Origin: Dehalococcoidia bacterium
GTDB taxonomy: Bacteria; Chloroflexota; Dehalococcoidia; Lucifugimonadales; SAR202-VII-2
NCBI GenBank assembly: GCA_965263165.1
Contig: OZ253584.1
Location: forward strand, 1,209,736-1,273,735
Reading direction: 5' to 3'
Length of the DNA: 64,000 nucleotides
Shown here: positions 2,417-59,129 of the stretch, in pieces
How positions within the stretch are numbered: position 1 is the first letter of the stretch
Layout: each line of letters opens with the position of its first letter
Notes under the pieces: generated by a model
The model's database searches: none
Seen by the model: only the letters and a program-made list of their open reading frames with translations
What the model was told of the DNA's origin: nothing
Program-made: the position numbers and the translations under genes

Positions 2417-3352
2417 ATGTCCAGTCAGAACGGTCTACAACCAACATCACCGGTGGATGTCGTCAGCTTTGGCATGCTGACGCCGTATTACAACCTCGTT
2501 GTGGACGCCCCGCCGGTGCATAACACTGCCCATCCCATCGCGGAACTCAGCGAATGCATCGGCGACGATGCCTCGATCGTGGCCCTGCACCTCAAGAAGT
2601 GGGGCATCGCCAGCGGCATCATTGGGACCGCCCTTGGCGACGACGAAGCGGGGCGGCGGACGGCGGAACGTCTGGAGGACCTGGGCATCGCCGGCGAGGT
2701 GCGGCTGTCGAAGGAGATTCAGACCAACTTCGAGGTGTGCGTCTGCGACCCGACGGGCGGGCGCACCTACTGGTGGCAGCGGGACCAGGCGGTGTTGGAG
2801 ACCCTGGCGACAGCCAGCCTTGCGTTGCTGGAGGGGGCTCGATTTCTCTACGTCGATTGGTACGACGGCGATCACATTCTGCGTCCGATGAAGGCAGCCA
2901 AGGCCCAGGGATCGGCGGTCTATCTGAACCTGGAGCACAAGCACGACGACCCTGATCTGCTGGCCCGCCTTGCTCCCTACGTCACCCTTTGCCAGGTCAC
3001 AACCGACGAGGCCCAGCATGGCGACAATGCCGAGGAGTTGGCAGACCATGTGCTTTCGACGGGGGTTGAAGCGGCCATCATCACGATGGCCTCCAGGGGC
3101 TCGCTCATTGCCAGTGGGAAGGACCGGATACGTTTTCCCGCTATGCCGGTGGAGTTGATCGACGGCTCCGCCGCGGGCGTGACGTACTCTGCCGGGATCA
3201 TCTACGGACGGCTTCAGGGCTGGACGCTGGAGCAGTGCGGACGGTTCGCCACGGCGGCTGCGGCCTTGCAGTGCACCGCCGGAGGCCCGCAGGCGTTCCC
3301 TTTGCCAGAGATCGAACGCTTGGCGGCGCAGGTGGATGTTGTTGTGGAATAG
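2417..3352 (+). CDS. PfkB-family carbohydrate kinase
   Basis: 311 aa. The C-terminal DGSAAGVTYSAG...AAAALQCTAGG resembles the PfkB/ribokinase nucleotide-binding signature. Confidence 0.8.
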   Translation: MSSQNGLQPTSPVDVVSFGMLTPYYNLVVDAPPVHNTAHPIAELSECIGDDASIVALHLKKWGIASGIIGTALGDDEAGRRTAERLEDLGIAGEVRLSKEIQTNFEVCVCDPTGGRTYWWQRDQAVLETLATASLALLEGARFLYVDWYDGDHILRPMKAAKAQGSAVYLNLEHKHDDPDLLARLAPYVTLCQVTTDEAQHGDNAEELADHVLSTGVEAAIITMASRGSLIASGKDRIRFPAMPVELIDGSAAGVTYSAGIIYGRLQGWTLEQCGRFATAAAALQCTAGGPQAFPLPEIERLAAQVDVVVE

Positions 3353-3494
3353 GCAGTCGCGGCAGAGGTTCCCTTGGCTTCCGCATTATGGCCGTCGGGA
3401 GACCGTGCAAGAACGGGAACGGCGAAAACCCTTACCAGGTTAAGGGTTTCTACGGCAATGCTGCGGACTACCTCGCGGCTCGCCGCTTTGGGGT

Positions 3495-4570: not shown

Positions 4571-5617
4571 ATGGAGTACCGACCCCTAGGCGCCACGGGA
4601 ATGATGGTGTCGGAGATAGGCTTCGGCACAGGCGACAATGCCGGCCTCATCGTCAGAGGCTCGCCTGAGGATCAACTCGCTTCGGTGGTAAGGGCGCTGG
4701 AATTGGGGGTGAACTACTTCGACACCTCGCCGGACTACGGGAAGGGCGTGGCGGAAACCAACCTGGGCGCAATCTTCCGTCAGCTCGGAGTCCGCCCGTT
4801 CATTACCACCAAGGTCGAGATCATGCCTGAGGACTTGGACGATATCGCCGGGGCGGTCGTCCGGTGCGTGGAGGGCAGCTTGAGGCGGCTCCAGATGGAC
4901 TGGGTGGACGTCGTGCAGATTCACAACCCGCCTCACCTGGAGCGGCATATCGACGTGCCCGGGTGGATTCATCTTTCCGTTGACGACTACCTGGGGCGCG
5001 GAGGCGCGCTGGAGGGGTTGGAGCGGGTGCGCCGGGAGGGGAAAGTCCGCTACCTGGGCATGGCGTGTGAGCACGCCGACGCCCGCGCGGTGCACAGTCT
5101 GTTGGAGACCGACGAGTTCCAGGTCATCAACATGTGGTACGACTTGCTGAACCCCACGGGGGTCATTTCAAAACCGCCTGGGATGAACGTTCACTATGAC
5201 TACGGGGAGATGATTGAGGATGCCGCCGAACATGGAGCGGGTGTGGCTATCATGCGGCCGCTGGCCGGGGGCACACTCACGGACCATGCGGCCTCCGGCG
5301 GGGCGCGTCACCCATTGGCGGGGGGAGGGCTGTCCAGGCACGCCGATATCTATAGCCAGATGGTGGAGCAGGCCAAGTCGATGCGGTTTCTGTCGCAGGC
5401 GGGCGAGCACAACCTATCGCAGGCGGCGGTGCGGTTCATTCTGGCGAGTGACAGCGTCAGCACGGTGATCGGAGGCTTCTCTGAGATAGCCCACCTAGAG
5501 GAAGCGGCGGGCTGCTCCGGGGCCGGACCGCTATCCGAGGAGAACATGGCCCGCGTAGAGATGGTGTGGCGGTCCAATTTTGGGCGCTGGGACGGGGGCG
5601 CCTGGGACGAGGTCTAG
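4571..5617 (+). CDS. aldo/keto reductase
   Basis: MEYRPLGATGMMVSEIGFGTG...GVNYFDTSPDYGKG is a typical AKR N-terminus. AAGGAG lies 6 nt upstream of ATG 4571. The track ORF 4421.. is an N-terminal over-extension. Confidence 0.9.
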   Translation: MEYRPLGATGMMVSEIGFGTGDNAGLIVRGSPEDQLASVVRALELGVNYFDTSPDYGKGVAETNLGAIFRQLGVRPFITTKVEIMPEDLDDIAGAVVRCVEGSLRRLQMDWVDVVQIHNPPHLERHIDVPGWIHLSVDDYLGRGGALEGLERVRREGKVRYLGMACEHADARAVHSLLETDEFQVINMWYDLLNPTGVISKPPGMNVHYDYGEMIEDAAEHGAGVAIMRPLAGGTLTDHAASGGARHPLAGGGLSRHADIYSQMVEQAKSMRFLSQAGEHNLSQAAVRFILASDSVSTVIGGFSEIAHLEEAAGCSGAGPLSEENMARVEMVWRSNFGRWDGGAWDEV

Positions 5618-5635
5618 CAAAGAGGCTTAGAAACC

Positions 5636-6580
5636 ATGAACCTATTCATCACCGGCGCAGGGCTGATCGGGACCCACGTTGCGGCGGAGATGGTTCGCCG
5701 AGGGCACCGGGTCATGCTGTATGAGGTCGCCCCCAGCGAGGAGTTTGCCCACGCCGTGGCGGGAGACGGCGTTTCGTTGGTCCGGGGCGACATACGGGAC
5801 ATGCCGGCGCTTCTGGACGCCATGCGTTCCCATGAGGCTGAGTTGGTCTTTCACTCTGCCGCACAGATCGGCGCCGTGGCCCAGGACCGCCCCTTCGATG
5901 GTCTCACTATAGCGATAGGCGGCACGATTGCCGTCGCCGAGGCCGCGAGGCTTGGCGGCGTAGGGCGCATCGTCTTCGCCAGCACGACGGGGGTATACGA
6001 CTACAGCCGGAACCCGACCGGCTTCGTCGCCGAGGACTTTCCCATGGGAGCCGACATCTTCTATTCGGCCTCCAAGGTTTCCAACGAGGTGCTCCTCCGC
6101 TCGTATGCCAGGCACTATGGACTGGAATATTGCGCAACGCGATTCGCCCACGTGTACGGGCTGGGGAGGTACGTCGGGGGGTCGAAGGGTGGGGAGGCGG
6201 TGCATGCCGCGGTGGCCGTCGCCCTGGCCGGCGGCGACGTAGCAATTGGCCGGCGGCTCGCCGATTTGCAGGAGTACGTGTACGTCAAGGACGTTGCCCA
6301 AGGCGTATCCAATGCGCTGGAGCGGCCCCTGCAAAGCAACGCCTTCAACATAGGCACTGGAGTCGTGGAAGGGCCGGAGGACTTGGCGGCGGCCCTTGGC
6401 TCCCTGAACCCCGGCGCTCGATTCGTGTTCCAAGCGCCGGGCCCCAACGACCCGCCGCCCGTTCACGAAACGCCCTTCGATCTGAGCAGGTCTCGCCGGG
6501 AGTTGGGGTACGAGCCGCAGTACACACTGACGGACGGCATAGCGGACTTCGCCAGGGAGATTCAACGCGTTGGGGGGTAG
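5636..6580 (+). CDS. NAD-dependent epimerase/dehydratase (extended SDR), copy 1
   Basis: MNLFITGAGLIGTHV Rossmann GxxGxxG motif and YSASK catalytic motif; 314 aa. Confidence 0.85.
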   Translation: MNLFITGAGLIGTHVAAEMVRRGHRVMLYEVAPSEEFAHAVAGDGVSLVRGDIRDMPALLDAMRSHEAELVFHSAAQIGAVAQDRPFDGLTIAIGGTIAVAEAARLGGVGRIVFASTTGVYDYSRNPTGFVAEDFPMGADIFYSASKVSNEVLLRSYARHYGLEYCATRFAHVYGLGRYVGGSKGGEAVHAAVAVALAGGDVAIGRRLADLQEYVYVKDVAQGVSNALERPLQSNAFNIGTGVVEGPEDLAAALGSLNPGARFVFQAPGPNDPPPVHETPFDLSRSRRELGYEPQYTLTDGIADFAREIQRVGG

Positions 6581-10700: not shown

Positions 10701-11095
10701 CGCCCCTTCCTCCTGGCGGCGGCCTCTCTGACGGCCAGCTTGTCCACTTCCTCGTTCCCCGGATGGCCGTTGTGGCCGCGCACCCAGGCCCACCGGATCC
10801 CGCGGGCCTGAGCGAGTTTGTCCAGGCGGTCCCACAGGTCCCTGTTGACGTTGCGCTTCCAATTCTTGGTCATGGTGTTGATGAGGTATTGGCTGTCGCT
10901 GGTGAGGAGCACCTGGGCGCCCTCCGGGACGGCCTCCAGGCCCTGGATGGCCGCCATCATCTCCATGCGGTTGTTGGTGGTGTGGGCCTCGCCGCCGCTG
11001 AGCGTGCGCTTGACGCCGTCCTCGACGATGATGGCCCCCCAACCTCCCGGTCCGGGGTTTCCGATGCACGCGCCGTCGGTGTAGATGGAAAACAA
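10697..11095 (-). CDS. rnhA: ribonuclease HI
   Basis: [17 protein letters not shown]...TNNRMEM...SDSQY...[15 protein letters not shown]. Its stop overlaps the moaC start by 4 nt. Confidence 0.9.
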
Positions 11096-11152
11096 GGTAG
11101 CGCCTCGCGCTCGAATGAAGGGAGGCTGTCGTCGCGGCCTCCGCAGATTGGC

Positions 11153-12199
11153 CTATCCGCCGATGTGGTACATCTCCACCTTGCGGCTCTCCCGTTGAGC
11201 GCTGGTGAGGGAAGAGCGCAGCTCGGAGTACCGGTCCCGCCGTTGGCGCCAGATGCCGGTGATGATGTCGAGCAGGTCGGCGTCAGAGGCACCGGCCCGC
11301 ATTGGTCCCTTGAGGTCGGTCCCGCCGGTGGCGAATAGGCAGGTGACGAACTGGCCCTCCGGGGACAGCCGGCCCCGCGTGCAGTCCTGGCAGAAGGGTT
11401 GGGTCACGGAGGCAATGACCCCGATTTCGCCGCCGCCATCGACGTATCGGTAGCGGTTGGCCACCTCCCCCGGGTAGTTCTTATCCACCGGGGCCAGGGG
11501 CATCTCCGCGTGAATCCGCTCGACGACTTCGCGGGCAGGGACCACCTGGCTCAGGTCCCACCCGTTCAGCGTGCCCACGTCCATGAACTCGATGTACCGG
11601 ACGATGTGGCCCGAGCCCTTGAAATGCCTGGCCAGGTCCACAATCGTGTGGTCGTTGACGCCCCTCTGCACCACGCAGTTAACCTTGATGGGGGCCAGGC
11701 CGACTTCCTCGGCGGAGCGGATGCCCTGCAGGACGCGCTGTGGTGAAAAGCCATTGACGCCGCTCATTTGGCGGAACACGCCGTCGTCCAGGCTGTCCAA
11801 GCTGACGGTGATGCGCTGGAGGCCCGCGTCCTTCAGCGCCTGGGCCTTCTGAGGCAGAAGCGAGGCGTTGGTGGTCATGGAAAGGTCTTCCAGTCCCTCA
11901 ACCCCGGCGAGCATGGCGACCAGTTGCTCGACGTCCTGGCGCAGGAGCGGCTCCCCGCCGGTCAGGCGTATCTTGCGCACGCCCAGCCCCACGAAGAGGC
12001 GGGCCAAGCGGGCGATCTCCTCGAAGGTGAGGACGTGGCCCTTAGGCAGGAACTGGTAGCGCTCGCCGTAGATTTCGGCGGGCATGCAGTAGGGACAGCG
12101 GAAGTTGCACCGGTCGGTCACCGAGACCCGGAGGTCCCGGAGGCGCCGCCCGAATGCGTCTTTCAACGAGGTTGCAGTATCCTGTGCGCCGGCTGTCAT
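11153..12199 (-). CDS. moaA: GTP 3',8-cyclase MoaA (radical SAM)
   Basis: [18 protein letters not shown] radical-SAM cluster motif. ATG 12199 overlaps the rdgB stop by 4 nt. Confidence 0.9.
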
Positions 12200-12810
12200 G
12201 GTGTCGTTTGGGCTGTCATGCGCCGAAGTGCGTCGGCTGCGGCCCAAGCCGCCTGCCCCCGGTGGCTGATGCGGTTCTTCTCTTCTGGAGAGAGTTCGGC
12301 CGTAGTGCATTGGCGGTCAGGCAGGAGGAAGATGGGGTCGTAGCCGAAGCCGTTCGATCCGGCCGGCTGGAAAGCGATGACGCCTTCCACGGTCCCCTGA
12401 AACAGCGATACGCCCCCCTCTGGATCCGCCACGGCCACCACGCAACGGAAGCGCCCCTGCCGTTCTTTGACGGGTACGTTTCTGAGCTTCTCTAGGAGGA
12501 ATTGTACACGGTCTTCGTCCGTGGCGCCGGGGCCGGCGTAGCGGGAGGAATAGATGCCCGGCGCGCCGCCGAGGGCATCTACCTCAATGCCGGAGTCGTC
12601 GGCCAGGGAGAGGAGACCGCTGGCTTTGGCGAATGCCTGGGCCTTCAAGCTGGCGTTCTCCTCGAACGTTGAGCCGGTTTCCTCCACGTCCAGGCTGATG
12701 CCTTCTTCCTGGGGCGTGGTGATTTGAAATGGCACGTCGCCCAGCAGCGCGGCCAACTCGCGGGCCTTGTGGGCGTTGGTGGTGGCAATGAGGAGCTTGG
12801 GCGGTGTCAT
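12196..12810 (-). CDS. rdgB: dITP/XTP pyrophosphatase (RdgB/HAM1 family)
   Basis: LLIATTNAHKARE...SLADDSGIEVDALGGAPGIYSSRYAG...GFGYDPIF. Confidence 0.9.
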   Translation of the reverse strand: MTPPKLLIATTNAHKARELAALLGDVPFQITTPQEEGISLDVEETGSTFEENASLKAQAFAKASGLLSLADDSGIEVDALGGAPGIYSSRYAGPGATDEDRVQFLLEKLRNVPVKERQGRFRCVVAVADPEGGVSLFQGTVEGVIAFQPAGSNGFGYDPIFLLPDRQCTTAELSPEEKNRISHRGQAAWAAADALRRMTAQTTP

Positions 12811-14531: not shown

Positions 14532-14867
14532 CAATGCTATCCGTGGTCCAGGTTGGTGAAGTTTCAGCGTAGCTTTGGGGGGTGGGGCTGTCAACAAAGG
14601 GTTGCGGCTGGGGCCGGGCGCCCACGGATGACACTTGTCCCCTCCTTGGTTCCCGACCCCACCCCGCACCTGGCTGGCGCCTCCTCCTACGGTCTCTCCC
14701 CTTCCTCGGCTCGGCAACCTCGGCGTGCGGGGCCAAGCTGGGATGGTCTGGGTCGCGGTTCGCCGGGGCTTGAATGGCCGCTGCGGGAAGGGTAGGCTAC
14801 CGCGTGATGCTTGGCCCTCAGAGGCGTTGGGCAGGCAACGAACTCGCGCAGGGGGGAGGTAGTCATT

Positions 14868-26338: not shown

Positions 26339-26482
26339 GGCCCGGCCTCGTCCCTGAGTCCGCGAAGCTGAGGAGCCCCGCCCCAAGAACGGCGGGGCTC
26401 CTGCTTTGTTGACGCCTCCTGGGGGCTATGCTACGGTGCTTCCCGTAGAACTCTTCGGACCTTAAAACACTTCTCAGTACCA

Positions 26483-26640
26483 TTCTAGGTGGCCCACACG
26501 GGCAGAATAGGGAAGTGGGTGAAAATCCCACGCGGCCGCGCCACTGTGAGCGGGTAGCCGCCGGCACAAACGCCACTGACCATCAGGTCGGGAAGGCGCC
26601 GGTCAGGCGATGATCCGCAAGCCAGGAGACCTGCCTAGAA
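26483..26640 (+). promoter_or_regulatory. cobalamin (B12) riboswitch aptamer
   Basis: Core AATAGGGAAGTGGGTGAAAATCCCACGCGGCCGCGCCACTGT, B12 box GCCACTGACCATCAGGTCGGGAAGGC, and 3' element AGCCAGGAGACCTGCC. P1 pairs TTCTAGG (26484) with CCTAGAA (26632). Confidence 0.9.
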
Positions 26641-26728
26641 CTTTGCCGGGTGCTGCTCCTCGCGTTGGGGGGCGCCTGGAGATTGGGTTTCGGCAGGTCG
26701 GCTGCCTCCCTCCCTCTCTCGTGGCACG

Positions 26729-32631: not shown

Positions 32632-33848
32632 GAGACCTTTGCGTAATCCCCATTGATGCGCCGTTTGGTTGGAATGAGGGTTCTGGCGGGGATTGGGGGG
32701 CCTGATGGCGGCCTGCGGCCTGGCTCTCCTCCCCGGTCTCCCTGACTTCTCAGGGCTTCCCGGGCGCTTCCACCCCCTGCGGGCACACGCCGCCCCCGGC
32801 GGTCAGGCGGCATCCAGCAGAAGACGGTCAGCCCGCCGCAGGTTGTATGCCGCACACTTGAAGAACAGCTCCGTGGCGTTCCGCGCTAGCCCCATGTACC
32901 GCACCCGCCGGTAGCCGTAGGTCCGCTTCAGCGTCCCAAACACCTTCTCCACCGCCGACCGCTGCTGTGCTATCAGTGCGTTCCGCCGCTGCTCCCACGG
33001 CGGCAGCACCGGATGATGCTTGTCCGCCCGCCGCATGATCCGGTCCTTGATGCCCAGGGACTTGAGCCAGGCACTCCGCTGCTTCGACCCGTAGGCCTTG
33101 TCCGCATACACCGCCGCCTCATCTCCCCTCACCAACGCCTCCGCCACTTCCGTATCGTTCACGTTGGCCGGCGTCAGCACCGCCTCCCGGATCAGCCCTG
33201 ACCCTGCATCCACCCCCACGTGCGCCTTGTAGCCGAACTGCGACACCCCCCGCTGGCGCGTGAACCGCGCATCGGGGTCGGTCTCGCTCGGCGCTCCCGG
33301 CCGCCTCCCTCGCAGCGAAGGACGCTTCGCCTGCGCCTCCACGATGGTCGCATCGAGGAGCGTCCCCTTCTTCACGAAGAGGTTGCGCTGCGCCAATTGC
33401 CGGTCCATCTCCTTGAACAGTCGCGGGGCCAAACCCCGCTCCGTCACTTCCCTGCGGAAGCGGCTGATCGTCGAGTGGTCGGGGACGGCGTCCTCCAGGC
33501 CAAGCCCCACGAACCGCTTGAACGAGACCCGGTCCCACAGCGCTTCCTCGATCGCTTCGTCGGAAGCGTCATACCACTGCTGGAGCACCATGACCTTGAC
33601 CATCACCACCGGCGGATAGCTCGGACGGCCTGACGGGGCGGCATAGATGCCCTTGACCACGTTGGCCAACTCCTTCCAGTCCAGCATCGCCTCGAGCCGC
33701 TCCAACTTCCCGTTCCGTCCGACTCGGTCCGGGAGAAGCACCTCAATGAACGACTGTCCACGTATCGTCCGGTGCATGGCTTCCCCTCCTTGGCGTTGGC
33801 TCTCCGTGCTGATTGTGCCTGACCAGAAAGAGGTTATGCAAAGGTCTC
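32632..33848 (-). mobile_element. IS5-family insertion sequence (about 1.2 kb)
   Basis: 15-bp terminal inverted repeats: GAGACCTTTGCGTAA (32632-46) versus the reverse complement of 33834-48, GAGACCTTTGCATAA (14/15). Flanked by the direct repeat GTAATC (32626-31 and 33849-54). Encloses a single transposase gene. Confidence 0.8.
32803..33777 (-). CDS. IS5-family DDE transposase
   Basis: 324 aa from MHRTIRGQSF.... Contains GRPSYPPVVMVKVMVLQQWY, DHSTISRFR, LLDATIVEA, GYKAHVGVD and VYADKAYG. Confidence 0.9.
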   Translation of the reverse strand: MHRTIRGQSFIEVLLPDRVGRNGKLERLEAMLDWKELANVVKGIYAAPSGRPSYPPVVMVKVMVLQQWYDASDEAIEEALWDRVSFKRFVGLGLEDAVPDHSTISRFRREVTERGLAPRLFKEMDRQLAQRNLFVKKGTLLDATIVEAQAKRPSLRGRRPGAPSETDPDARFTRQRGVSQFGYKAHVGVDAGSGLIREAVLTPANVNDTEVAEALVRGDEAAVYADKAYGSKQRSAWLKSLGIKDRIMRRADKHHPVLPPWEQRRNALIAQQRSAVEKVFGTLKRTYGYRRVRYMGLARNATELFFKCAAYNLRRADRLLLDAA

Positions 33849-34078
33849 GTAATCGGGGCAAGCCTCCCTCTTCCCACCCTCGTACTTGGAGGCGGCTCTG
33901 TCCCTGCCCCGTAGTCGGGGGCAGGTTAGGAAGGGGAGCCTGTCTCACAAGAGAGCGCAGGGCTGGATGTGTGCGGGTCTGTGCAGGACTGGTGTGTGGG
34001 TTGGACAGGCGAGCAGGCTATCCGAGGGGAATTATATCGAATTTTAGCCAGATTGCCCAGATGCGCCCGAAAAAACGC

Positions 34079-34107
34079 TTGACAACCATGGGCGCAGAGT
34101 GTAAAAT
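34079..34107 (+). promoter_or_regulatory. near-consensus sigma-70 promoter just inside IRL
   Basis: TTGACA, 17 nt, TAAAAT. It sits 27 nt upstream of ATG 34134, in an AT-rich patch. Confidence 0.6.
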
Positions 34108-34651: not shown

Positions 34652-35617
34652 ATGACACAGACAGGGCCGGGCAAATCCTACCGTCAAGGCATCAACCTCT
34701 TGGAGATCGTCAAGCGTTTCGACTCCGAGGAAAAGGCCGAGGTGTGGTTCGTAGCGCAACGTTGGCCGCACGGCGTGGCTTGCCCGGACTGCGGCTCGGT
34801 CAATGTCGCTACGGTTGCCAGCCGCAAGCCCCAGCCCTTCCGTTGCCGCGATTGCCGCAAGTGCTTCTCGGTCAAGTCAGGGACCGTCCTGCATAGCAGC
34901 AACATCCCGCTCAACAAGTGGGCCATCGCCTTCTACCTCTACATGACAAACCTCAAGGGCGTCTCCAGCATGAAGTTGCACCGCGACCTGGGCATCACGC
35001 AGAAATCGGCATGGCACATGGCGCACCGCATCCGCGAGACTCTAGCGGCCACTGGCGGCAAGTTCGCCGGGCCGGTCGAAGTGGACGAAACGTACATCGG
35101 CGGCAAGGAAGCCAACAAGCACGAGTCGAAGAAGCTCCACGCAGGACGCGGGCCAGTCGGCAAGACGGCTGTAGTCGGCATGAAGGACCGCGATACCGGC
35201 CAGATCGCCAGCCAGGTAGTAGAGTCCACGGACGCGCCTACGCTACAGGGATTCGTCCGCCGTCACACCGAGCGCGATGCTACGGTCTACACCGACGATG
35301 CACAGGCTTACGTCGGCCTACCCAGGCCCCACGAAGCGGTCAAACACAGCGTCTCGGAGTATGTGCGAGGGATGGCCCACACGAACGGCATGGAGTCGCA
35401 TTGGGCGGCTCTCAAGCGGGGCTACGACGGGGTATATCACCACATGTCGGCCAAGCACCTGCCTCGGTACGTCGTCGAATTCGAGGGCCGCCACAATCGG
35501 AGGCCCCTGGACACCGCCGACCAAATGGCAAACATGGTCAAGGGCGCGGACGGCAAGCAGCTCCGATATTCCGACCTGATAGGCCCCAAGCCCACAATCC
35601 AGCCTGCGATGTTCTAG
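34652..35617 (+). CDS. IS1595-family transposase
   Basis: N-terminal zinc ribbon CPDCGS...FRCRDCRKCFSVKSGT and DDE domain VEVDETYIGGK...VYTDDAQAY...HTNGMESHWAALKR. Confidence 0.9.
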   Translation: MTQTGPGKSYRQGINLLEIVKRFDSEEKAEVWFVAQRWPHGVACPDCGSVNVATVASRKPQPFRCRDCRKCFSVKSGTVLHSSNIPLNKWAIAFYLYMTNLKGVSSMKLHRDLGITQKSAWHMAHRIRETLAATGGKFAGPVEVDETYIGGKEANKHESKKLHAGRGPVGKTAVVGMKDRDTGQIASQVVESTDAPTLQGFVRRHTERDATVYTDDAQAYVGLPRPHEAVKHSVSEYVRGMAHTNGMESHWAALKRGYDGVYHHMSAKHLPRYVVEFEGRHNRRPLDTADQMANMVKGADGKQLRYSDLIGPKPTIQPAMF

Positions 35618-36310: not shown

Positions 36311-38322
36311 TTGTGCTACGCTTACGTTGGTTCCTATCGCCGGAGACCCCCTTTGCGAACGCTCGCGCTCCTCGCCTTGATGCTCCTCGCGTTCGCCGCA
36401 TGCCAGTCCGCGCCGCCCACCGGCACTTTCGCGGACCCCGGCGCGCCTCCCACGCCCACCCTTGCGGTCACCCCGCCGCCTACCCCAACCGCCCCGCTCG
36501 CGCCATCCCCGCTGCCTACCCCTGCCGATACCCCAACTCCTACACCGACGGCTACCGCTGTCCCAACACCGACAGCGATGCCAACCGCTACCGCTACCCC
36601 AACGCCTACGCCTACGGCAACCGCCGCGCCCGCGCCAACCCCAACCCCCAGGCCCACGCCCATCCCTACGCCGACGCATAGACAACTCGCCACCGCCGCC
36701 CTCTCCCCCTACCTCTCCTGGTTCAGCTCGCCGTCGGGAGGGGAGTTTTGGCGCATGATGGAAGCGCTCACGAAGATTTGGGTGCTGGACCCCGAGATCG
36801 GCGTTGCTGCTGCGCAGATGCCCTTCTACGACGGCAGCATCACCTATAACGATTATCACGCCCTGGAGGCCCTCGTCACCATCGCCGAGGCCGACCCGGA
36901 CCTGGCGCTGGCTCTCACCGGCTTCCCCTGGTTCGCCGACGGCATACCGGACGAGCGGAGCCCCGTAGCCACAGAGCGCCTGGCGATTGAGTTTCTGGCC
37001 AGGATAGCTCAGGCAAGACCTGGGCTGGCGGCGACGCTCCAAGCCAATGGCTGGTTCGCCGACACTCCGACCGCACGCGAAGCACAGGTGCTCGCTTCCC
37101 TCGCTCGCTTTGCCGAGAAACACCCGAACTTGGCCGCCGAGACGGCGGGGGCCCCTTTGAAGATCGGAGGCGTCGTGGGATATGGATATGGGCGGAATGC
37201 GATTGAATTGCTGCATACATTGGCCGACTGGAATCCGGAGCTCGCGCGCCAGATGCTCGCCTACTTTTCGGAAGAGCCGTTCCGAAACCGCAACTTCTCC
37301 ATGCTGCGCAAGGTGAGCGGTATGAGTTCGGGCAACTCGGACATAACGCGCTTGGAGCGCCTCGTCGCCCAACCCTGGTTCGCCGATGGATTGAATGCGG
37401 AGGAGCGAGCGCTCATCACCGTTCTACGCTTTGGCGGCCAGCAGGCTGACGACCTGATGACCTCCCCATTCTCGCGCTCGGCGGTCATATCGCTGCCCCT
37501 GGCCGGCGAGGTCAATCTCTGGGCGTTCCGGCCCGACCCCTTCCCTCCCGACACCGTGATCGGCGGCAACGTGCTGGAAATGATGGAAGAAGCCGTGCGC
37601 GGCGCCGAGCAGGTGACGGGAGTCCCGTTCCCCACGACCGACGTCATCCTGCTGATCGTTGACCCGGAAAGCCTTGGATTTGCCGGACATTTCAACGGAG
37701 ACCACTTCGTAATCGGGCGGCACATGGAGGGCACCGTGTTCGTAGACCTTGTCTTCCATGAGATAGGCCATTACTACTTCAACTACTTCCACTTCGCGCA
37801 GACCTGGCTCGTCGAGGGGGGGGGGCTGAGCTCGTACACGCGTATGTGAAAGACCGGATAACCCAGAGATACCTTGAGTATCTTGTGCAACTGTCGCCGG
37901 GCGACCCACTTCCAGACGTTCCATTTAGATTCCTAGTTCCCGTTGCAGATCCGAAAGACTACGAGACACTGGAGAACCTGCTGCGCCGCGACGCTGAGAG
38001 CCTTCAGGACCCAAACGGCTGCGGGGCGTTTGAGAACATTCACGCGTTGAGGATCCCCGACCATCCGGCTAGGGGGGAGGCATTTCCCTGCTCCTACGTC
38101 TTCGGCCGGCACCTGCTCCTGAGCCTGCACAACCTGTTTGGGGAAGCGGCGTTCTCGTCGGCCCTGCAGGAGTTGCACCCGCTGTCTCTCGACTCACCCA
38201 GGCCGACCGAGGAAGAGATATACGGCGTATTCCTCAAGCGCACCCCGCCCGGCCTCGAACAGCGGTTCCGCGCCCTGTACAAGCGGGTCCACGGCGGGCC
38301 TTTCCTCAACGCCGGGAGCTGA
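36311..38322 (+). pseudogene. lipoprotein gluzincin (M1-like HExxH...E) metallopeptidase, split by a frameshift in a G10 tract
   Basis: ORFs 36311..37849 and 37846..38322 are collinear. TTG start, signal peptide plus FAAC lipobox, Pro/Thr linker. HEIGH followed by WLVEG, where the frame breaks at 37816-25. Confidence 0.7.
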
Positions 38323-38459
38323 CCCGCTTCTGCTGCGTAGGAGACCTGCGGCAACCCCGCCGCGGTTGACGGTCGGCGCCGAAAGGGGTAAGCGTCAGCG
38401 CAGATCGCCGGGTTCTCCCACTCAACCCTCCCGGCGCGCGCTCTCCATGCGGAACGGCG

Positions 38460-38699
38460 CCTCCCCCAAGCAGGGGCAGGGGGCGCAGCCGCCGCCGGGG
38501 GTACAGCGTGTCCCTCTGTTGCTAAAACGTCCCAGGGCGGAGCGGGCGGGATAACAACGTCCGCGCCAGAAGCCCCCTCCCATCCCTCCCCCAGCAGGCC
38601 CTCCCCCAGCAGGGTGCAGGGGCGCAGCCCCGCCGGGGGTACAGGGGGTGTCCCCCTGTTTCCAAAAACGTTGGAGGGTGGGCAGGTGGGACAACAGCG
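38460..38699 (+). repeat. two ~100-nt direct repeats (38460-38559 and 38600-38699)
   Basis: By-eye alignment gives about 75-80% identity. Both copies start with CCTCCCCC(A)AGCAGG and contain GGGGGTACAG..GTGTCCC.CTGT hairpins. An extra CCTCCCCCAGCAGG sits at 38585. Confidence 0.65.
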
Positions 38700-38782
38700 C
38701 AGGCCAAACCAGACCCTCCGCTGAATGACGACGCAGGCCGCAACAAGACCATCCGTCCAGGAAAAACCCCGCCAACCCCCCA

Positions 38783-38811
38783 TTGCAAAATACGAACGAT
38801 TGTGCTAGAGT
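38783..38811 (+). promoter_or_regulatory. orphan candidate promoter in the non-coding gap
   Basis: TTGCAA, 17 nt, then TGc-TAGAGT (extended -10). No credible ORF lies downstream. Confidence 0.35.
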
Positions 38812-38978
38812 AGCCCCATAAAACCCTGCCGCATACAGGTGGACTGGGGGAATCCATAGCGAGACCCCCTGGGCAGGAGGGTCTGGGAACATTCCCCAGA
38901 CCCGCATCCACCCGAGGAAGGTTGGGACCCGACCGACTGCCGTTGTAGGGCACAGGCGCCTTGGAACCATCCGGCTCA

Positions 38979-39086
38979 GCGACGGCTAACGACGGATCCG
39001 CGACGGCTAAGCGACGGCTGCACGACAGCTAAGCGACGCATCCACGACGGCTAACGACGGGTAACGACGGATAAACGACGGCTCCA
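38979..39086. repeat. array of ten 10-11 bp repeats with a CGACGG core (consensus CGACGGCTAAg)
   Basis: Cores start at 38980, 38990, 39001, 39012, 39023 (CGACAG), 39034 (CGACGC), 39045, 39055, 39065 and 39076. Confidence 0.85.
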
Positions 39087-39113
39087 CGCCTACGGGAGAA
39101 GAAAAAGCAGGCG

Positions 39114-39146
39114 CACAAACAATCAAAGGGTCACAAACAATCAAAG
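39114..39146. repeat. perfect 15-nt direct repeat CACAAACAATCAAAG x2 (period 18)
   Basis: Copies at 39114-39128 and 39132-39146. Confidence 0.8.
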
Positions 39147-39183
39147 AATGAGGTTGAGGCCGGGGAAGCCTCTCATCCCTGCC

Positions 39184-39696
39184 CTAGGTGCTTTCCTCCA
39201 CCTCAACCAACACCTGGCCGCGGCTCACCTGCTCGCCCTCCGCAACGAGGACTCGCCGCACGGCGCCGGCCCTCGCGGCCCTCAGCGTGTGCTCCATCTT
39301 CATCGATTCCAGGACGAGGACAGGCTGGTCCCGTTCCACGATATCCCCAATCTGGACGACGACCTGCAGGACCTTGCCCGGCGCCGGGGCTGCGACGTCG
39401 GCGCTCTCAGGGCCAACCTCGACCTGCCGCCGCCCCCTCCGCCCCGCCGGGCGGAAGATGAAGACGTCGCCGTCGAGCCAGAGGTGGAGCTGCTCACCGA
39501 CCCATGCGTAGGCAAAGGCGAGAATCTCGCCGCCTTTGAGGCGGCAGTAGTCTGAGGTGCCTTCTCCGAGTGCCGCGTCAAGGGCGATGTCGGCCCCTTC
39601 CACATGGACGACGACCCGCCCGCCTGCCTCGGTGACCTCGTAGGTGCACTCCGGGCCTGGGTTGGGATATTGCGGCGCCAGGACCACGCGGCTCAC
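39184..39696 (-). CDS. biotin carboxyl carrier (BT + biotinyl domain) subunit of an acyl-CoA carboxylase
   Basis: VLVLESMKMEH biotinylation motif. GTG 39696 overlaps the upstream stop (GTGA), with AGGAGG 5 nt upstream. Confidence 0.85.
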   Translation of the reverse strand: MSRVVLAPQYPNPGPECTYEVTEAGGRVVVHVEGADIALDAALGEGTSDYCRLKGGEILAFAYAWVGEQLHLWLDGDVFIFRPAGRRGRRQVEVGPESADVAAPAPGKVLQVVVQIGDIVERDQPVLVLESMKMEHTLRAARAGAVRRVLVAEGEQVSRGQVLVEVEEST

Positions 39697-58906: not shown

Positions 58907-59100
58907 GATGGTCTTCCTGTCGCCGCTTAGGAACTCAGGAGGCGTCCTGAGGGCGTGTAAAGGGGTTTGAAGGCGTCGCCGGGCTGGCCTGGAGCGGCCA
59001 ATGAACGGGCGACGGTTTTGAGGAGCTAAGGCACCTTCCCGCGACGATATCGGCATAATGGTATCGGCAGTCCACGCCTGTGTCAACAGAGTCGCCAGCC

Positions 59101-59129
59101 TTGACACGTCCCCCCTCCGCAGCTACGAT
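59101..59129 (+). promoter_or_regulatory. candidate rny promoter (back-to-back with a minus-strand promoter for mtnA)
   Basis: Plus strand: TTGACA, 17 nt, TACGAT. Minus strand: TTGACA (reverse complement of 59081-86), 17 nt, TACCAT. The two -35 boxes form GTGTCAA/TTGACAC inverted repeats. Confidence 0.4.

Follow-up and report, generated by a model that had tools for sequence, protein, structure and literature searches.

A conserved, promoter-headed, non-coding multicopy family with a short-period tandem array in uncultured Dehalococcoidia, and its candidacy as a family of RNA genes

The stretch of Dehalococcoidia bacterium DNA analyzed here (contig OZ253584.1; 64,000 nt, hereafter the window, whose positions are used as coordinates) contains a non-coding gap of 860 nt (38323–39183) between two convergent open reading frames (ORFs). 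The gap is flanked on the plus strand by an unannotated ORF of 158 amino acids (37846–38322) and on the minus strand by a biotin-carboxyl-carrier-like (BCCP-like) gene (39184–39696), which ends a carboxylase operon of BCCP, biotin carboxylase and carboxyltransferase. Our analysis revealed that the gap holds one copy of a conserved, promoter-headed, non-coding multicopy family of uncultured Dehalococcoidia that is absent from Rfam. The AT-richer patch described in an earlier note on this DNA was reproduced, since the GC fraction is 0.55–0.59 at 38700–38900 and 0.49–0.51 at 39050–39200, compared with 0.65–0.77 in the surroundings; A strongly exceeds T on the plus strand of the gap. A scan for tRNA and tmRNA found none. 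The features of the locus, with helices of the predicted RNA numbered P1 to P6, are as follows.

38461–38559, plus strand: first copy of the dispersed repeat REP1 (nhmmer E = 5.9e-07)
38599–38699, plus strand: second copy of REP1 (GCAGGGGCGCAGCCCC..ACAGGGGGTGTCCCCCTGTTTCCAAAAACGT..GGAGGG; E = 1e-25)
38700–38782, plus strand: conserved upstream block (..GCAGGCCAAACCAGACCCTCCGCTGAA..GCAGGCCGCAACAAGACC..), with a C-run at its end, just before the −35 hexamer
38783–38788, plus strand: −35 hexamer TTGCAA, identical in 17 of 18 aligned members and TTGCAT in L055
38803–38811, plus strand: extended −10 element TGc-TAGAGT (TG at 38803–38804, TAGAGT at 38806–38811); the family consensus is TGc-TATAGT
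38818, plus strand: A, predicted transcription start, 7 nt after the −10 element (sigma-70 position rule applied to the alignment)
38825–38830 with 38872–38877, plus strand: helix P2b, CCUGCC with GGCAGG, paired in 97.5% of alignment cells
38846–38850 with 38865–38869, plus strand: helix P3, GGGGG with CCCCC, paired in 84% of cells
38879–38903, plus strand: hairpin P4, GGGUCUGGG-AACAUUC-CCCAGACCC, minority subtype (the B/C hairpin discussed below)
38912–38921, plus strand: CCGAGGAAGG, the 3′ strand of helix P2, unpartnered in the window copy
38938–38952, plus strand: hairpin P5b, UGCC-GUUGUAG-GGCA, 100% paired in the alignment
38955–38968, plus strand: remnant of hairpin P6, GGCGC-CUUG-GAACC (GGCUC-UUUG-GAGCC in the family), with two pairs broken
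38980–39085, plus strand: tandem array of about 10 units of 10–11 nt, (A/G)CGACGG type, ending ..ACGACGGCUCC
39086–39146, plus strand: tail rich in A (45%) and poor in U (8%), in which CACAAACAATCAAAG occurs twice (39114–39128 and 39132–39146)
39148–39176: hairpin AUGAGG..GAGGC-CGGGGAA-GCCUC-UCAU, followed by UCUUUGAUUGUUUG on the minus strand and by no U-run on the plus strand

The family was recognized from its recurrence. A scan for TTGCAAAATACGAACGNNTGTGCTA, with one genome per species, found 13 separate loci in one Dehalococcoidia metagenome-assembled genome (MAG), CBDDDS01. With the window, L001 on an ENA contig and L053–L056 in three ENA assemblies, the family comprises 19 members, plus one fragment, a truncated copy without a promoter (L013 3529–3750). 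L001, whose BCCP is 94% identical to that of the window, is the orthologous locus and shows the same arrangement downstream of BCCP. L053–L056 came to light because automatic gene calling had produced spurious ORFs within the element (P0058–P0061): the conserved domain was translated on the antisense strand and used as a query for such “proteins”. The earlier note called the promoter an orphan; it instead heads one member of a multicopy family, since 18 loci besides the window, in at least five assemblies, carry the same promoter with 17-nt spacing before homologous sequence. In a leave-one-out nhmmer search, 38824–38970 matched positions 37–186 of the 191-position profile (E = 3.7e-23), the single match in 64 kb. 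The members are approximately 85–88% identical to each other, and the comparisons of structure and promoter below use an alignment of 18 sequences.

An Rfam scan, which the earlier note had proposed as a check, found no family at the locus or its paralogues. With Rfam 15, no family was matched at the locus at the gathering threshold, and the 13 paralogous loci gave no match. At E ≤ 10, the best match in 38300–39250 was sX13 on the minus strand, with 20.2 bits compared with a gathering threshold of 50, and L012 gave chance-level matches only. A JGI metagenome scan with the helix pattern CCTGCCGCAT..CCCCCTG.GGCAGG found no further member; its one match is attributed to chance because it lies inside an unrelated coding region. 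No description of the family was found in the literature searched. The ORF lists of 15 loci showed that neighboring genes are functionally unrelated and that none is conserved; no toxin, partition or replication gene lies next to the copies in these 15 loci. The whole region is absent from L003 (BCCP 55% identical), a relative too distant for empty and filled sites to be compared cleanly. In another relative, L002 (BCCP 80% identical), the end of the short-read contig at 1351 coincides exactly with the array edge (..TGTAACGGCTCCACGCCTA), and short-read assemblies are probably broken by the array.

The promoter, TTGCAA-17-TGc-TAGAGT, lies where the earlier note placed it. The 17-nt spacing is invariant across the aligned members, as are GAAC and TGTGCTA within the spacer, and the last T of the −10 element is kept in 17 of the 18. 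Most members have TATAGT, of which the TAGAGT of the window is a weaker version. The description of this promoter as near-consensus holds only in part: 8 of 12 positions match TTGACA/TATAAT, which is why a generic scan with a threshold of 9 of 12 remained silent, but the extended pattern TTGCAA-N14-TGnTAnnnT is far from chance, with one occurrence in the window compared with 0.00 expected. The looser pattern TTGMMA-N17-TAnnnT occurs five times compared with 0.17 expected (approximately 30-fold enriched), indicating that the organism uses such promoters. The other four of these sites, of the form TTGACA-N17-TAnnnT, lie at 14566–14594 (minus), 34079–34107 (plus), 59058–59086 (minus) and 59101–59129 (plus), the last two forming a divergent, back-to-back pair (59058–59129).

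The scan that gave the 13 loci also found an exact match to 23 specified bases of the family promoter (TTGCAAAATACGAACGCATGTGCTA) at L005 5052–5076 (minus strand) in the Thermomicrobiales MAG CADCWJ01, which belongs to another order of Chloroflexota. It precedes an AraC-family regulator gene, and no further parts of the family follow. By a hand estimate from the size of the collection, approximately 0.02 such matches are expected by chance, and the match suggests a shared promoter or operator type. A LexA/SOS box (CGAAC-N4-GTGC) in the spacer was considered and rejected: this motif is not enriched in the window (2 compared with 1.47 expected), and the only other gene with this promoter, in L005, encodes a regulator of the AraC type and has no DNA-damage function.

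Upstream of the promoter, the conserved block at 38700–38782 is common to approximately nine other members, and the remainder have unrelated sequence there. Because homology upstream of the −35 hexamer is lost in several copies, the family-wide unit begins at the promoter. The block contains CCAGACCCTCC (38709–38719), which forms an 11-nt perfect inverted repeat with GGAGGGTCTGG (38876–38886, overlapping segment B, described below); the upstream arm, which precedes the predicted start, is conserved in the family, and the other arm is specific to the window. Further upstream lies REP1, a repeat of approximately 100 nt that usually occurs in one or two copies upstream of members. Its terminator-like appearance is due to two GC-rich hairpins and a TTTCTAAAAACGT run. 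REP1 gave 21 matches in the 237 kb examined, all beside family members, and none elsewhere in the 64-kb window. The Rfam family Clostridiales-2 was rejected as an identity for REP1 (15–17 bits compared with a gathering threshold of 58.6, non-significant).

Conservation in the unit is at the nucleotide level. The earlier note saw no credible ORF, and this was borne out, since frame-shifting indels exclude a conserved ORF and no frame on either strand matched Pfam. One coding candidate would be a leaderless small protein with a lipoprotein-signal-like start, MK(S/W)A..PLLFLGAC... An ATG stands at the predicted +1, 7 nt after the −10 element, in 15 of 18 members, LFLGAC resembles a lipobox, and two variable sites in codons 10–11 are synonymous. 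However, the start codon is replaced by ATA in the window and by AGG in two members, L009 and L011, the second of which also has Ser in place of the Cys; the hydrophobic core spans only about five residues, and the same nucleotides form helices P1 and P2. The frame corresponding to P3 is split 7 versus 10 by 1-nt indels with six frame histories, so that copies differ in frame after codon 16. For the window copy the idea is already refuted, because both the start codon and the region are missing. We therefore regard a leaderless protein as highly improbable for the family.

The transcribed part of the unit would begin with a 5′ domain of approximately 185 nt. Full-length members are predicted to fold with z = −3.4 and −3.5, and none of 200 shuffles was as good. 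The predicted helices are the P1 hairpin, a long-range P2 (CUCUUUCUCGGA with UCCGAGGAAGG) that encloses P2b/P3 and P4, then P5 and P5b, and a terminal P6. In the 18-sequence alignment, 92% of helix cells form standard pairs, compared with 44–55% when partners are slid, and many single changes keep pairing through G-U (for example, U-G in 9 and C-G in 8). By eye, the most variable stretches lie outside helices, such as columns 49–51 in the P1 loop and columns 83–95 in the run before P3. An RNA structure is thus supported, but not proven, by predicted thermodynamics and the by-eye placement of variation.

Two subtypes of P4 occur at the same place. The minority subtype is found in the window, L011, L055 and L056: in L011 it reads GCGUCUGGGG-GAUGUU-CCCCAGGCGC, one G-C to C-G swap away from the window, and L055 and L056 have related versions. 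The majority subtype is a different hairpin, GC-CU-GGG-AACAA-CCC-GG-GC. This bears on the mutually exclusive hairpins proposed in the earlier note, in which segment B (GGGTCTGGG, 38879–38887) pairs alternately with A (AGACCC, 38862–38867) or C (CCCAGACCC, 38895–38903), giving a switch-like fold; as a model, this would be a riboswitch-like or attenuator-like RNA. The segments are present as described, and both pairings can form in the window: B:C with 9 bp and the 7-nt loop AACATTC, and A:B with 6 bp. G- and C-runs in P3 and P4 also permit alternative pairings in other minority-subtype members. The alignment separates the two pairings, as B:C is kept as the minority P4, but A:B is not conserved because AGAC is unique to the window (AAUC in the others), and A belongs to the 3′ strand of P3 (CCCCC) in the family. 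In addition, the majority subtype has another P4, no co-directional gene lies downstream to be controlled (the window neighbor is convergent), and no Rfam riboswitch matches at the locus. The apparent switch is a local accident of a damaged copy, and a regulatory switch is very unlikely here.

P5b points toward the array. It contains GCCGUUGU, which can pair with the core ACGACGGC of the array units in a predicted duplex of −16.4 kcal/mol, and the conserved P5b site GCCGUUG(U) recurs as a best duplex with the array in the window, L011 and L017. This complementarity, a 6–8-nt match, is only weakly significant.

The tandem array follows P6 directly in the family, with 5–10 units and the core ACG(G/A/C)C. 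In the window, Tandem Repeats Finder reported period 11 and 9.8 copies at 38979–39083, and CGACGG-N5-CGACGG has seven matches compared with 1.75 expected, five of them in the array. The earlier note saw the promoter region running into a CGACGG array; the array is genuine and does follow, but it is an integral module of the unit, not a neighbor. Neighboring units lie 10 nt apart in 31 cases and 11 nt apart in 54 (mean 10.65 nt). Array types recur in unrelated samples: that of the window is shared with L055 (the closest) and also L015, and that of L008 and L016 with L053 and L054. Units keep positional identity across types (for example, the last units are TGT-N-ACGCCC, then TGT-N-ACGCCT, then TGT-N-ACGGCT), yet within any one array the base N is uniformly A, T or G. 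Slippage alone would be expected to wipe out positional identity, and drift to produce mixed arrays; such a concerted change hints at a switching of specificity.

Array and tail occupy the same place in all short-type members. Tails contain 33–48% A and 6–17% U in 10 of the 12 members measured, whereas L055 and L056 have 26% A. In all members the tail finishes with one or two (A)CAAUCAAAG-like motifs. In a “long” subtype (L006, L007, L010, L012, L013 and L018), a degenerate GGCUC-type array and approximately 350 extra nt precede the same tail. In L015 (32–330, plus strand), the promoter, the tail and a perfect 11-nt array of CGCGACGG(T/C)TC are retained, but the 5′ segment is unrelated and carries its own direct repeat, CAAGATGTTCAAGAAGATGTTCAAG. 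This combination is evidence that modules are exchangeable.

The array can also be read at the level of DNA, one of the two main rival explanations. The 10–11-bp repeats would be iterons for a cooperative DNA-binding protein of the ribbon-helix-helix (ParR) or winged-helix response-regulator type, with the core pseudo-palindrome CCGT-N-ACGG; the promoter would be an operator-controlled module and the RNA a by-product. The parC centromere of plasmid R1 has ten 11-bp iterons bound by ParR, and plasmid centromere and iteron arrays resemble the present array in having about ten direct repeats with a period of 10–11 bp near a promoter. The mean spacing is about one helical turn, the array types GTAACG and GTTACG are almost reverse complements of each other about a central base, and the invariant bases within the promoter spacer suggest an operator. 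Non-coding GTAACG iterons with 10–11-bp spacing also occur in viral contigs. A viral scan for GTAACG arrays gave 33 matches, mostly 12-nt coding repeats and none homologous to the family; the IMG/VR contigs L021 (~3300–3450), L041 (~12150–12300) and L051 (~5550–5700), which are phage-like and of low to moderate GC, carry non-coding, iteron-like GTAACG(G/C/T)(C/T)T arrays, also non-homologous to it.

Several observations do not fit the DNA-level reading. The ORF lists of the 15 loci show no partition, replication or regulator gene linked to any copy, and no adjacent gene for an iteron-binding protein (parM/parR, rep). BLAST of a full element found no match in 72,556 plasmids and 50,697 phages, and a viral scan for the family promoter found none. 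Units often lack the 5′ CCG half of the palindrome, as do most of those in the window. The unit is chromosomal and multicopy. A folded domain separates the array from the start site, approximately 170–200 nt upstream, and iterons alone leave this ~185-nt domain and the conserved tail unexplained. We consider the DNA-level reading unlikely.

The window copy differs from its relatives. Alone among the 18 aligned sequences it lacks 30 nt (columns 44–73), which correspond to P1 and the 5′ strand of P2; CCGAGGAAGG is therefore left unpartnered. P6 has two mismatches, making the window the member with an incomplete 5′ domain, and the 5′ part (38818–38972) folds with z = −2.4 (3 of 200 shuffles as good). 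The whole region is unremarkable in structure (z = −1.5 on the plus and −1.0 on the minus strand). A terminator-like site on the minus strand (38839–38825) was dismissed as window-specific sequence of the deletion junction, absent from other members. Compared with L001, the window is 88% identical in the upstream block (38600–38782), 86% in the promoter and 97% in the tail block (39082–39183), but identity drops to 66% in the 5′ domain, where 36 columns are gapped, and to 57% in the array. Since its array type is that of L055 and L015, the window unit is a mosaic, probably formed by gene conversion between paralogues. With its 30-nt deletion, broken P6 and weaker −10 element, the copy is probably worn and may be decaying.

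These features bear on the other main rival, a selfish or neutral dispersed repeat that spread by duplication and recombination among REP-rich intergenic regions, with conservation reflecting youth and the window copy being a decaying relic. REP/BIME, ERIC, Correia elements of Neisseria and other miniature inverted-repeat transposable elements (MITEs) are dispersed intergenic repeats with hairpins and sometimes outward promoters or terminators; the present copies resemble them in being similar, intergenic, often between convergent genes and in some cases truncated. The 85–88% identity of members, the mosaics of interchangeable modules, the truncated promoter-less copy, the deletion and broken P6 of the window, the indication of gene conversion between paralogues in the uneven window/L001 identity (97% in the tail but 57–66% in the 5′ domain and array), and the position among REP-like repeats and insertion sequence (IS) copies all fit this explanation. 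However, no terminal inverted repeats join the ends of the L014 or L017 units, and no linked transposase is present in the ORF lists of the 15 loci. Unlike MITE-type repeats, the unit is long (approximately 400–700 nt) and has a gene-like fixed order and orientation, with a promoter at the homology boundary followed by domain, array and tail. The exact starting point of homology is a promoter of functional type whose hexamers and spacing are invariant, variation is, by inspection, highest in loops and junctions and not in stems, and array types and unit order are kept between assemblies. A selfish repeat is in our view rather unlikely.

At the 3′ end, the hairpin at 39148–39176 probably serves as the minus-strand terminator of the BCCP operon and may also mark the 3′ boundary of the plus-strand RNA. 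Its 5′ half, GAGGYUGAGGCCGGG, is common to L001, L008, L012, L014, L016, L017 and L054. The facing operon raises the idea of an antisense or convergent regulator, in which transcription into the 3′ end of the BCCP operon would modulate it by antisense pairing or polymerase collision. The lack of a plus-strand U-tract terminator before the BCCP stop codon at 39184 and the preservation of the arrangement in L001 agree with this idea, as does a convergent downstream gene in approximately 9 of 14 members (as read, for most neighbors, from raw ORF lists and not from gene calls or Pfam). By the same reading, however, the downstream gene is co-directional in approximately 5 of 14 members, and the neighbors are unrelated. 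Since the array, the conserved tail and the multicopy nature would also be left unexplained, we regard an antisense role as improbable.

The explanation we favor is that 38783 to approximately 39176 on the plus strand is a partly degenerate member of a multicopy, lineage-specific family of non-coding RNA genes, each transcribed independently, and we hold it with about even confidence. A sigma-70-type extended −10 promoter would fire at about A38818, and one or two terminator-like REP1 repeats may insulate it from upstream read-through. The transcript would be approximately 330–375 nt long in the family and approximately 360 nt in the window (307–376 nt predicted across members) and would consist of three modules: the structured 5′ domain, the tandem array, and the A/C-rich, U-poor tail with CAAUCAAAG. 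The array would be the working part, a multivalent platform for an oligomeric RNA-binding protein or a short complementary RNA, and the 5′ domain may supply stability or a nucleation site, as its GCCGUUG loop can pair with any unit. We tentatively extend this to a modular “array RNA”, a possibility in which we place limited confidence: array-specific address bases (GU-A-ACG, GU-U-ACG, GU-G-ACG, GCGACG) might let paralogues recruit, titrate or template different partners, while the GCCGUUG anti-repeat would pair with any unit.

Several points weigh against an RNA gene family of this kind. The candidate unannotated RNA of the earlier note stands as a conserved, promoter-headed, non-coding multicopy unit, but its transcription, strand, start and 3′ end, like a sponge or scaffold role, are what we infer, and the binding partner of the array is a proposal. 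The mean spacing near the DNA helical repeat also fits a DNA-level element. Covariation is non-significant, as three pairs changed on both sides and 87 of 500 shuffles reach that number; at 85% identity the members differ too little for covariation to be judged, and their conservation could reflect recent duplication and not selection. Arrays are not predicted to be especially single-stranded, with a pairing probability of 0.50–0.65, and the plus strand has no U-tract terminator before the BCCP stop codon. The family is narrow, given the JGI scan without a further member, and the promoter-less L013 fragment and the damaged window copy indicate that copies decay as selfish repeats do.

Known RNA classes provide partial parallels for such a transcript. 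The sponge RNAs CsrB/CsrC, RsmX/Y/Z and CrcZ are independently transcribed RNAs of approximately 100–400 nt, in which a repeated short motif titrates an oligomeric RNA-binding protein, and a genome often has several such paralogues that share a regulated promoter. The present family is similar in its many copies of one short motif, its several paralogues and its shared promoter. In contrast to the GGA in hairpin loops or A-rich CA motifs of sponge RNAs, ACG(G/A/C)C occurs here in strict tandem 10–11-nt units whose sequence is array-specific, and a separate structured domain of ~185 nt precedes the array. There is no sequence or Rfam similarity. GGA is found in 2 of 10 window units (ACGGAU), in none of the L001, L014 and L017 units, and in one or two ACGGAG units of L008, L016 and L053; the family thus lacks the many GGA (A(N)GGA) motifs, mostly in hairpin loops, that mark CsrB/RsmZ-type sponge RNAs.

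The antitoxin RNAs of type III toxin–antitoxin systems (ToxI, CptI, TenpI) have 34–45-nt units that fold into pseudoknots; the toxin endoribonuclease that cleaves them is the product of the gene directly downstream. They share with our family a promoter followed by a tandem direct-repeat array as one RNA, but here the units are 10–11 nt long and at least 13 copies occur per genome. Because of the unit length, and because no conserved co-directional ORF follows (the window neighbor being the convergent BCCP gene), this class was rejected. A CRISPR array was also rejected, since it needs 23–50-nt repeats with unique spacers and the 10–11-nt units here abut without spacers.

LhrC and NsiR1 are multicopy small RNA families with a shared promoter. 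Qrr1–5 form another such family (PMC2632942). The likeness lies in near-identical paralogues, each with its own conserved promoter, and in gene conversion between copies. These RNAs are, however, Hfq-dependent base-pairing RNAs of approximately 60–110 nt with one seed and a U-tract terminator, and they have no tandem array.

The wider surroundings of the locus contain further repeats and mobile elements. In L001, REP1 is found at 11030–11200 and 12500–12600, with an IS5-like transposase gene between the two copies. A second dispersed repeat, REP2 (..TCCCTGCCCCCGTACTCGGGGGAAGGTTAGGAAG..), has 24 matches in the loci examined; its window copy (33896–33939) abuts the start of an IS5-like transposase ORF, and in L001 the CCCCCGTACTCGGGGG hairpin of one REP2 copy is apparently interrupted by an IS. 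REP3 (GCGCTTGAATCGCAGTGCGTCTCGCACAGCTTGTTCAGAGATTCCCTAG), a third repeat, lies at the 3′ ends of several genes. Two window ORFs are transposase-like by sequence appearance only: an IS5/DDE-like one of 381 amino acids (32803–33948, minus strand) and an ISXO2-like one of 321 amino acids (34652–35617, plus strand). Both sit just upstream of the 158-amino-acid ORF and of an ORF of 512 amino acids (36311–37849, plus strand) that overlaps it by 4 nt. The 512-amino-acid ORF begins with a signal-like N-terminus and includes a long linker of tandem repeats rich in Pro, Thr and Ala (Tandem Repeats Finder rows 36470–36677); neither ORF matched Pfam. On the side away from BCCP, the locus shows no synteny with L001 or L003. 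Exact-protein look-ups of the window BCCP and biotin carboxylase gave no record. The sole Rfam match in the window is a full-length cobalamin riboswitch (RF00174) at 26470–26652 on the plus strand (128.5 bits, E = 5.7e-32).

A gap of 860 nt that seemed empty is accounted for by a copy of this family, and recognizing the family would improve the annotation of MAGs. To our knowledge, little regulatory RNA has been described in Dehalococcoidia. If transcribed, the family would represent an uncatalogued, abundant RNA family with at least 13 genes per genome in these largely uncultured bacteria. The combination of a structured domain, a strict 10–11-nt array and an A-rich tail has no close match among described bacterial RNA classes, and it may provide a model for multivalent RNA–protein or RNA–RNA recognition and for the concerted evolution of repeats inside an RNA gene.

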